Sequence record: AP012532
Strand: one strand, 5' to 3'
From: Stx2-converting phage Stx2a_F451
DNA length: 64,000 nt
Shown here: positions 51,001 through 54,000 of the stretch, piece after piece
Layout of the letters: each line of letters starts with the position of its first letter
How positions within the stretch are numbered: the stretch's first letter is position 1
Made by a program: the position numbers

Positions 51001-54000
51001 GGTGAGTATTGGAATACGGTTTTGCCATTTATAACAGAAATAACGTTAATGTTACGGGCGTGCTGACTCCAGTATTTTTCCTGGACAGATTTACAGCGGA
51101 GTCTGGCTCAAAGACGTACACTAATAAACCCGACGGGAAATCATTGCAGGCTGTATGTTGTTTATTTCCCTGGAATAATGTATTTGCGGATCGGAAAGTA
51201 CCGAAGATAACCATTAATGACAATACGGTGACGTGGTCGAATCTTGAGCAGGGTATGGGATCTTATATTTATACATTCTGGGGATAAGTGTTATGTACGG
51301 TTTGAGCATTATGAAGCCGGATGGCAGCGTATGGATAAGTCCAGGTTTTACGCCGCAGTGTCTGATCAACAAAGGCACCATACCGGCGACTGAAAAGTCT
51401 TTTTTTAAAACATCAATCCCGTCAGGCAAAAGTTGTTTTTTCTTTATCAGAACAGAGAAGAAGGCCGATGTCATGTACACGCATGAACAGATTGATGGAT
51501 ATCATGCACTAAGGCTTCATGTAATTGTCAGGGGAACGAACCCTGGTGTTACGACGGTTTATGCTTTCGCGAATATGGTTACTCCACCTTCTGAGTATGG
51601 TATCGCCATGTATAACCCGGACGGTGAGATGATTTATCATGGCGAAATGATGCTGCTTGACGCGAAGTTAATACCTGTTGATATCAAATTTGAAAAGGAC
51701 CTTGGATATCCATGCGCAATCATGCCTGCACTGGTCGGGTATTATAACTGGAAAAGAACTCCTTATGATCGACCGATTTATACCACATCCACTGGTGCTA
51801 CAGGAAATAAAATATATTCCTGTGAGCATTATTCCGGTGGTGCAACATGGGATATTCGAAAGCCGTATATAGATAAGGTCCTGGTTATTAATACATCAGT
51901 ATATGATTAGTTGAAGCGAGTCTTTAATATTCATTTAAAATGTCTAAAAAGATGTATTATTAAAAAGTTTAGCGTGTTATCTGAATACAGGATATCTTAA
52001 ATGAAGAGTATAGCAACACTGGTTGTGTGTGCAATCTCCGGGATTGCCTGTGTAAATTTATCTGCACATGCAGCAGAAGGAGAGCATACAATTTCTCTGG
52101 GGTATGCGCACTTTCAGTTTCCGGGACTGAAGGATTTTGTAAAGGATGCGACTGCTCATAACAGGGAGACTTTCAGTCATTTCGTCAACAGAAACTACTT
52201 TTCTTCATTGGGCGAATATACAGATGGTCGGGTCAGTGGATATGAAGGCAAGGATAAAAATCCACAGGGCATTAATATCAGGTATCGCTACGAGATAACG
52301 GATGATTTTGGCGTTATCACCTCTTTTACATGGACGCGTTCTCTCACTAACTCACAGACATTTATTGATGTGCAGTCAGCCGATCATACCAGGAAGATTA
52401 AGAATCCGGCAGCTTCTGCCAGAACGGATATCAGGGCGAATTACTGGAGTCTGTTAGCGGGGCCTTCATGGCGGGTTAATCAGTACATGAGTTTATATGC
52501 GATGGCAGGGATGGGCGTTGCTAAAGTTAGCGCTGACCTGAAAATTAAGGACAATATTAACAGTAGTGGCGGATTTTCTGAAAGCAACAGCACGAAAAAA
52601 ACCTCCCTTGCGTGGGCTGCAGGTGCACAGTTTAACCTGAATGAGAGTGTTACACTGGATGTGGCTTACGAAGGTTCCGGCTCTGGCGACTGGCGCACGA
52701 GTGGCGTTACTGCTGGCATTGGCCTGAAATTCTGACCTGTATCCGGTAACCGTTTACTACCCGCTGTGATGGCGGGTTTTTTATTGCCCGTACAGGGCAA
52801 AAACCGTAAATTATGCGTGGGTGCCTTTCGGCTGATGGCTGGAGGGTGAACCTGAAGGCCTGATGTGGAAAGGCCCCGAGTCAACTTAACGTTAACCCGA
52901 GGCCCTAACACTTCGTACCTTAAGCAAGTAGAAGGTTAGCGCCTCTCTGTAAAAGGAGTCAAGCGCTATGTCGCAAAAATCGCTTATCACCGTCACAATT
53001 TGCATGACGGTTATCTTCACCATCTGGATGTTGCACGGTTCACTGTGTGAGTTCCGGCTGAATTTGTGGGGAGCGGAGTTTGCGGCGTTCTTACAGTGTA
53101 AGCAGTAGGAAAACCGCGACGGGGACGAGAGTCCCCGTCAACTGGTTGCTGAGGTTCAGCCGATATGGCACCCGTTTCAGGTGAGAGAATGAACGATAAA
53201 ATTCTCTGGTATATGCAGCGTGTTGTGAGAAATTCCCGCAACCCTGAATTTATGAATGAAGTTAAAGACGCCTGCCTTAAAAAGCAGGCGTTTTGTTTTG
53301 AGGCACCTGATGGCTTTTTGGTGCTGCGTTCTGTGCTCAGTGCTGATGGTATCCCTTATGTTCTGGTGTTGCTGGGCGTGTGTACGGGGAGTAACAGCGT
53401 TGAGCGTTACCTGCCGGAGGTGAAGACATTAACCCATCTGGCTGGCGGACGCTGGGCTGAGTTCCATACGGCAAGGCGGGGATTTATCCGGCTGGGAAAA
53501 CGACTGGGCTTTGAGCGAATGCCGGATGATGAGGATGGCTTCATGGTGTTCAGGATAGCGGTCTGACTGCTACAGTTTTCATCATTGTGTTTAAACCAAC
53601 ATTGTAATTCACATTCTGACCCTGCTCCGGCAGGGTTTTTTGTTATCCAGGGGGCCATTATGGGTGGAAGTAAAGGCGGTGGTGATACCAAAGTAAAACC
53701 AACAGCAGCGCAAATAGCACAGGAAGAAGTGGCCTGGAAAGGGTGGCAGGATTACAAAAATATCCTCCGCCCGGCTGAAGATAACTTCATGGAAAAGGTC
53801 GATGACCTGAACAGTGAGCAGCAGTACGACAATATTGCTGGCACCACAAATCTGGGGTATCAGAAACAGTTTGGCGAAGCACGGAAGGAGCTTGCGGGTA
53901 ATCTTGCTCAGTCCGGCGTTGACCCATCCAGTGGTCGTTTTAATGCGGTAATGAATGCGAACCAGAGTGACCAGGTAACCGGGCAGATTGACACAACCAC

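Follow-up and report, generated by a model that had tools for sequence, protein, structure and literature searches.

The paradigm of type I toxin-antitoxin (TA) systems is hok/sok (parB) of R1, and one system of the same family is already known from the Shiga toxin 2 (Stx2) phage 933W. This system, hokW-sokW, has been validated experimentally as a type I TA system, with antisense neutralisation and RNase III cleavage of the duplex both demonstrated, and its deletion was accompanied by delayed growth arrest and a two-fold lower phage release (Takada et al. 2021, PMC8621323). That study makes no mention of a second hok locus, so redundancy was not controlled for in the deletion experiment. Here we analyze a stretch of 64,000 nucleotides (nt) from the Stx2-converting phage Stx2a_F451 (sequence record AP012532), the whole of which is referred to as the window. 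It is that of a 933W/Sp5-type Stx2 phage, and in the interval between the genes lom and L0129 it carries an open reading frame (ORF) of 46 codons with the features of a Hok/Gef membrane toxin. The region 52819-53173, which includes this ORF, is very probably a hok/sok-type type I TA module, and a second hok locus distinct from hokW-sokW. The features of R1 referred to below are established knowledge, or are taken from the introduction of PMC8621323.

The peptide itself has been catalogued. A 2026 preprint by Escalera-Maurer et al. (bioRxiv 10.1101/2025.08.07.668861) assembled 1,264 Hok peptides, and its Table S2 lists the exact 46-residue peptide of the window as 72_1589, in the high-abundance cluster 72. 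The 72_1589 insert was carried on plasmid pAZ3 in strain LRP157 for an arabinose-induced toxicity assay, in which 42 of the 45 Hok homologues tested were toxic; the three non-toxic peptides are named, and 72_1589 is not among them. The exact peptide is thus reported, in this preprint, to be toxic on overexpression. Two hok copies were found there in 3.5% of the hok-carrying phages. While the peptide of that study is identical to ours, only the coding sequence was considered by design, such that Sok, Mok and the mRNA structure are left undefined and the Stx-phage context is not discussed. Our literature search found no description of this particular locus or of its antisense RNA.

The toxin gene

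The ORF extends over 52968..53108 of the plus strand, from the ATG at 52968 to the TAG at 53106-53108, and its product is MSQKSLITVTICMTVIFTIWMLHGSLCEFRLNLWGAEFAAFLQCKQ. By the curated threshold of the profile hidden Markov model, this product is a member of the Hok/Gef family: it scores 33.2 bits against Pfam PF01848 (HOK_GEF), where the gathering score is 22 (E 4e-8), with peptide residues 8-44 aligned to profile positions 6-42 of 42. At this score the resemblance is not a matter of chance. The peptide also matches PHROG 251 ("MokW-like host killing") with 85.8 bits. Its hydrophobic stretch comprises residues 6-22, and the motif S25-L26-C27-E28 is kept. Among 32 relatives, C27 and C44 are invariant, as are M1, Q3, K4, A39, L42, Q43 and K45, while the membrane segment differs from one relative to another yet remains hydrophobic. 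The initial annotation, made from the sequence alone, had proposed at this place a 46-codon ORF with a good ribosome binding site and a Hok/Gef signature, and both proposals hold, the former with an AAGGAG located 9 nt from the ATG. In the predicted folds this Shine-Dalgarno (SD) sequence is in part paired with CUCU at 52945-52948.

The closest described toxins differ from this one in size and detail. The R1 toxin has in common with it the N-terminal membrane helix and the SLCE...E-x-AAF signature, but the two peptides are only 30% identical, and the window toxin is shorter (46 residues against 52) and has a second cysteine in its terminal QCKQ. HokW is 51 residues long and 37% identical over 35 residues. 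HokA of the E. coli K-12 hokA/sokA locus shares an N-terminal M-x-QK and a C-terminal AAFL-x-CK, and the HokA equivalog (NCBIfam NF007290) was the best NCBIfam match; it was rejected as an assignment, since the score of 38.4 bits is far below the cut-off of 89.

Identity of the locus with hokW-sokW was likewise rejected, as the published hokW-sokW primers have no match in the window and hokW maps elsewhere in 933W. The hokW, mokW and sokW genes are annotated at 58460-58734 of 933W (AF125520.1) on the opposite strand, which corresponds to ~65.8-66.0 kb in window coordinates; this is 1.8 kb past the window end and 13 kb from the window hok locus. The window and 933W are collinear over the final 1.2 kb of the former, as far as position 56692 of the latter. 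933W/Sp5 therefore carries two hok loci.

The predicted hok mRNA and its alternative folds

A promoter for the hok mRNA (Table 1) can be predicted from a conserved pattern, TTGCnn-17 nt-TAnAnT-6 nt-GGGTGCC, which is kept in 28 distinct upstream contexts and in hokW, where the same layout reads TTGCnn-17-TAnAAT-6-GGGTGC. It agrees with the consensus at 8 of 12 positions, and its spacing places the predicted transcript start at ~G52819. Both this promoter and that of the antisense RNA are predictions that rest on conservation and on homology to hokW and sokW.

The RNA from 52819 to 53176 has a minimum free energy (MFE) of -155.4 kcal/mol (z -6.5). In this full-length fold the two ends are joined: GGGUGCC at 52819-52825 pairs with GGCACCC at 53167-53173, and UCGGCUGA (52828-52835) pairs with UCAGCCGA (53156-53163). 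In their MFE folds, 28 of 30 homologues keep all 7 nt of the 5' GGGUGCC paired to the 3' end. RNAalifold, run on 33 sequences, instead favours pairing of the 5' end with AAAGGCCCC at 52869-52877, and the 5' end moves to this same partner once the 3' end is trimmed in silico to 53140 or shorter. The segment 52905-52939 follows the same switch. It corresponds to the stem-loop of the Rfam sok model, it is sequestered by 52861-52870 and 53148-53155 in the full-length fold, and only in folds of the trimmed mRNA does it form a hairpin with an open loop, equivalent to sokT. Refolding of this kind is known for the R1 hok mRNA.

Both conformers are supported across homologues. Over 33 homologues, 91.3% of the alignment cells in the full-length structure are paired, against 36-43% when the partners are slid, and compensatory changes occur in 24 pairs (90 cells), a level that was reached by none of 500 shuffles. 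For the trimmed structure 90.4% of the cells are paired and 17 pairs show compensatory changes. The helix joining the 5' and 3' ends is paired in 96.9% of cells and that between the 5' end and 52869-52877 in 98.2%. The covariation of both conformers is clearly above that of the shuffles and slid controls. It is most evident in two places, namely the long-range helix that the antisense target region forms with 53148-53155 and the hairpin that follows the stop codon (53117-53140). In this hairpin AU alternates with GC/CG at two of the nine pairs in roughly half of the 33 sequences, and double changes are seen more rarely at another two.

The predicted mRNA thus resembles that of R1 in its length (~350-400 nt), in the pairing of its 5' and 3' ends, in the alternative pairing of the 5' end and in the target hairpin in the leader.

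A predicted Sok-like antisense RNA

The initial annotation expected a Sok-like antisense RNA but could not place it. A candidate can now be placed on the minus strand at ~52925->52869, from homology to sokW, a conserved promoter of the sigma-70 type and a strand-specific terminator hairpin; its predicted product is 5'-GCUUAAGGUACGAAGUGUUAGGGCCUCGGGUUAACGUUAAGUUGACUCGGGGCCUUU-3'. Alignment with the hokW locus sets the annotated 71-nt sokW opposite 52869-52919, with a deletion of 20 nt inside the hairpin. The sokW promoter reads TTGCCT, 17 nt, TAACCT, 6 nt, +1, and the general layout TTGnCT-17/18-TAACCT is shared by both loci. The TAACCT of the window is the same hexamer at the homologous position; it is kept in 35 of 36 distinct variants, and the TTG of the -35 box is also conserved. 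The TAACCT box of sokW itself was mutated in the "pro-less" construct so as to silence the gene (PMC8621323). The promoter spacing predicts a start at ~G52925. The 16-bp hairpin has a fold z of -5.4 and is conserved across 22-30 variants.

Like R1 Sok, the predicted RNA is a short cis-antisense RNA with a -35 box overlapping the spacer between the hok SD and AUG and a terminator hairpin complementary to the leader, although at ~57 nt it would be shorter than the ~64 nt of R1. Its 5' tail is unrelated to that of sokW: the cognate duplexes reach -36 and -46 kcal/mol, and the non-cognate ones only ~-18 kcal/mol.

The covariance-model search proposed in the initial annotation gave a divided answer. 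At gathering thresholds, no Rfam hok/sok model matched the locus, whereas a permissive search found Rfam sok (RF01794) on the plus strand of the leader with an E of 3e-6 and 35.6 bits against a gathering score of 59. The hokW locus, run as a control, scores 113.5 bits on the same model, which is built from classical loci. Annotation based on Rfam overlooks the RNA of this locus. Taken together, the Pfam match, the toxicity reported in the preprint, the hok-mRNA architecture and a Sok-like RNA that can be placed all support the reading of this gene as a Hok/Gef-type toxin.

Leader frames and alternative readings

Several observations weigh against a working hok/sok module. Classical hok genes are accompanied by mok, and its coupling to hok is central to the R1 mechanism. 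Unlike R1, and unlike hokW with its annotated mokW, the window copy has no frame starting from ATG, GTG or TTG that overlaps the hok start. The Rfam sok scores are below the gathering score not only here but throughout the 46-residue subfamily (35-55 bits). A strict sigma-70 consensus scan returned no promoter sites on either strand, the terminal 7-bp helix between the 5' and 3' ends is near-invariant and so has no covariation of its own, and no canonical terminator was found 3' of the fold-back element. Finally, the support for toxicity comes from a preprint and from overexpression of the coding sequence alone.

In place of mok, the leader has two short ORFs (Table 1), the first of which is preceded by an SD-like GAAGG at 52854-52858. 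Among 55 unique homologous modules, 14 have a frame of 61-62 codons that overlaps hok and starts from the conserved leader ATG or GTG. Loci with an identical Hok peptide are distinguished by indels of a single base, located in the loop of the hairpin, that toggle this overlapping frame; as these give the frame in only 14 of the 55 modules, a fixed Mok protein is not conserved at these loci. The GTG ORF at 52865-52939 was rejected as a conserved Mok, its length and frame being different among sister loci. Any coupling would have to rely on a short leader ORF whose end lies 14 nt 5' of the hok SD. If translation of the leader is needed, the Sok duplex, which would begin 2 nt past the GTG at 52865, would block initiation there.

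One explanation for these facts is that the locus, like the majority of hok loci in the E. coli K-12 chromosome, is a relic that is decaying and translationally silent, with a toxin that is intact but inexpressible without mok. The missing overlapping frame would fit, as would the 1-nt indels that toggle the frame among sister loci as if it were unconstrained, and the sub-threshold Rfam scores; at least one homologue does look degenerate (L066, whose 5' element reads GGACACC and whose Sok hairpin is weak at -12 kcal/mol, such that it appears to be a decaying copy). However, the ORF is under purifying selection. The identical protein, WP_000078907.1, is encoded by each of four homologues chosen by DNA similarity alone (92.6-97.4% identity). 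Their hok ORFs have 1-7 synonymous changes and none that is non-synonymous, while the neighbouring Lom and L0129-like proteins do vary between these four. Against other clades, the pN/pS (non-synonymous to synonymous polymorphism) of the peptide is 0.3-0.7. Selection on the peptide is strict, with no non-synonymous changes set against up to 7-8 synonymous ones. Moreover, every RNA element and each of the two promoters is kept whether the module lies in a prophage, P2-like or island context, the RNA structure is maintained by covariation, and hok has a strong SD of its own. We consider a relic unlikely.

Variation is not evenly spread over the module. In 23 distinct modules with an identical peptide, nucleotide diversity (pi) is highest at 52899-52928, the antisense tail and its target (0.16-0.28), while it is 0.05 or less over most of the ORF and ~0 in the 3' part. 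Either relaxed constraint or selection for specificity could explain this peak. In a homologous locus (L056, ORF 1201-1338), codon 46 has changed from CAG to TAG, giving a Hok of 45 residues.

Another explanation accepts the toxin but not its antisense control: the minus-strand promoter and hairpin would be a mirror of the mRNA structure, and mRNA folding or phage late transcription would govern expression. The minus-strand RNA is a prediction from the sequence, and its promoter, which agrees with the consensus at only 8 of 12 positions, was missed by the scan. A mirror image, however, would not explain the strand asymmetry of the hairpin, which is worth -26.5 kcal/mol on the minus strand against -11.9 kcal/mol on the mRNA strand (a difference of 14.6) because four G.U pairs become mismatches on the mRNA strand. 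This asymmetry was seen in every homologue tested, and only on the minus strand does the hairpin lead into a U run. The -10 box is, moreover, identical to the functionally tested one of sokW and at the homologous position. The asymmetry argues for selection on the predicted minus-strand RNA, and a toxin free of antisense control is in our view very unlikely.

That the ORF arose by chance in an intergenic spacer, for which nothing but its small size speaks, is practically inconceivable and already refuted by the Pfam match (E 4e-8), the persistence of the 46-residue family across Escherichia, Shigella, Salmonella and Citrobacter, and the purifying selection on the peptide. A hok/sok-type module remains by far the preferred account of the locus.

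Genomic setting, distribution and annotation

The coordinates of the elements of the module are given in Table 1.

Table 1. Elements of the second hok locus in the window of Stx2a_F451, in order of position
Feature	Position	Strand	Basis or remarks
Intrinsic terminator of lom, upstream module boundary	52759..52785	+	8-bp stem (52759-52777) + TTTTTTATT
Predicted hok promoter, -35 TTGCCC	52784..52789	+	conserved pattern
Predicted hok promoter, -10 TAAATT	52807..52812	+	TAnAnT 6 nt before GGGTGCC in all contexts
Predicted full-length hok mRNA, ~355 nt	52819..53173	+	5' end from promoter; 3' end is the fold-back end, uncertain
5' element equivalent to tac, GGGUGCCUUU	52819..52828	+	partner is the 3' end or 52869-52877
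Short leader ORF, 8 codons	ATG 52863 to TAA 52889	+	frame analysis; ATG conserved
Short leader ORF, 24 codons	GTG 52865 to TAG 52937-52939	+	frame analysis
Predicted Sok-like antisense RNA, ~57 nt	52925->52869	-	21-nt 5' tail, 16-bp hairpin, UUU
Target hairpin for antisense RNA, sokT equivalent	52905..52939	+	open loop; trimmed-mRNA folds only
Predicted Sok promoter	52933..52962	-	-35 TTGACT 52962..52957, 18-nt spacer, -10 TAACCT 52938..52933
hok SD, AAGGAG	52953..52958	+	read from sequence; 9 nt 5' of ATG
Conserved 3' untranslated region (UTR) hairpin right after stop codon	53117..53140	+	covariation
3' fold-back element equivalent to fbi, UCAGCCGA ... GGCACCC	53156..53173	+	pairs with 5' end

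The upstream neighbour is lom (52001-52735, Pfam Ail_Lom) and the downstream neighbour is L0129 of 933W. The initial annotation placed the ORF in an island bounded by terminators. This is correct on the upstream side, where the lom terminator is genuine (stem 52759-52777, followed by a T run). On the downstream side, the hairpin at 53117-53140 lacks a plus-strand T run and is the conserved 3'-UTR hairpin of the hok mRNA, not a terminator. A terminator-like hairpin with T runs on both strands does occur further on, at 53268-53300, within the PHROG-610 ORF; read-through hok transcripts might in reality end here, or the hairpin might be a terminator inside a gene that acts in both directions.

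The segment 52740-53200 recurs with 100% identity in 933W, in VT2-Sakai (Sp5) and in numerous further Stx phages, and DNA matches to the locus were found in 1,675 of 5,426 complete E. coli genomes. A search of a large protein collection returned 56 relatives, nearly all of 46 residues, in E. coli, Shigella and Salmonella, to which genome scans added relatives in E. albertii and Citrobacter. Homologous modules are found in mobile settings that are unrelated to each other: they adjoin ogr at the end of P2-like prophages, lie between J and a tail-fibre gene in a lambdoid prophage, and occur in the urease island of O157. The DNA block common to these different genomic contexts corresponds to 52799-53173 of the window. 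The locus is best explained as a self-contained "moron", an accessory gene under a promoter of its own, located between lom and L0129.

A scan of genome contigs with an alignment query gave seven loci, three of which are labelled as coming from unlikely hosts. A contig labelled Xanthomonas pisi (L008) matches the peptide with 100% identity, the match being cut by the contig end, and in a Planococcaceae metagenome-assembled genome (L009) and a Vagococcus sp. (L011) the peptide identity is 76% each. The module on these three contigs is probably enterobacterial DNA that contaminates the assemblies. Matches to other structured RNAs were seen near homologous modules: the O157 urease island module (L006) is close to STAXI and to an EFASI match that, with 48.9 bits, stays below the gathering score of 51.2, the RNAs being at 4558-4709 and 5185-5338, and STnc540 is found at 1809-1995 near the module of a Salmonella diarizonae contig (L014).

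As to whether the gene is unannotated, as initially claimed, the answer depends on the record. In the original GenBank record of 933W the interval from lom to L0129 is empty, and the 933W and VT2-Sakai reference GenBank records are still without this gene, such that the older annotation creates a false "non-coding island". Elsewhere the gene has been named: among the E. coli matches listed, the ORF carries the RefSeq label "Hok/Gef family protein", and recent phages annotated with Pharokka label it "MokW-like host killing". The gene is thus already annotated in RefSeq and catalogued, and the initial observation, though correct, concerns an ordinary Stx-phage feature and is no discovery.

The next ORF, at 53165-53566, is the L0129 of 933W, a "hypothetical protein" in RefSeq that belongs to PHROG 610, of unknown function. 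The PHROG 610 profile aligns from residue 1 if this ORF starts at the ATG at 53189. For this reason the annotation of L0129 from 53165, which makes its start overlap the hok 3' fold-back element, probably includes 8 codons too many. Elsewhere in the window, Rfam matches at gathering level comprise sRNA-Xcc1 twice (3690-3775 and 4226-4315, minus strand), the lambda cIII thermoregulator (11058-11116, minus strand), c4-a1b1, isrK and C4 antisense RNA within 22589-22786, three tRNAs (25979-26227), STnc100 (27636-27841) and AsxR (27843-27895, minus strand). These matches, at 3690-27895, are typical of Stx2 phages.

Proposed mechanism and implications

A mechanism can be sketched by analogy with R1 hok/sok and hokW-sokW. 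A weak constitutive promoter would yield a full-length mRNA in a stable and closed form, which would not be translated and would not bind the antisense RNA. Slow 3' trimming would free the 5' end, and its re-pairing with 52869-52877 would expose the target hairpin and the translation region. As long as the abundant, short-lived Sok-like RNA is made, its 5' tail would pair with 52905-52925 and the pairing would grow to a 57-bp duplex, which would block ribosome entry at the leader starts 52863/52865 and invite cleavage by RNase III. If Sok synthesis stops, be it through prophage loss, prophage induction or a shut-off of transcription, the processed mRNA could be translated, and Hok would enter the inner membrane and depolarise or kill the cell.

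A broader reading can be offered only tentatively. The 46-residue Hok proteins of prophages and islands might form a distinct hok/sok subfamily without a fixed mok frame, in which Sok controls entry at a leader ORF of variable length or acts mainly through mRNA cleavage. The recognition segment would diversify against cross-talk between the several copies of one genome, hokW-sokW included, and the module would be redundant with hokW-sokW in the timing of lysis and of the release of Stx2 phage and Shiga toxin. If this is true, the redundancy would account for the fact that deletion of hokW-sokW only halves the phage yield.

The remaining interest of the locus is that the very phage from which hokW-sokW was described has here a second hok locus, one that is unstudied and lacks a fixed mok frame. 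Redundancy between the two loci bears on the lysis timing of Stx2 phages, and the locus lends itself to the question of whether some hok systems can dispense with mok coupling.

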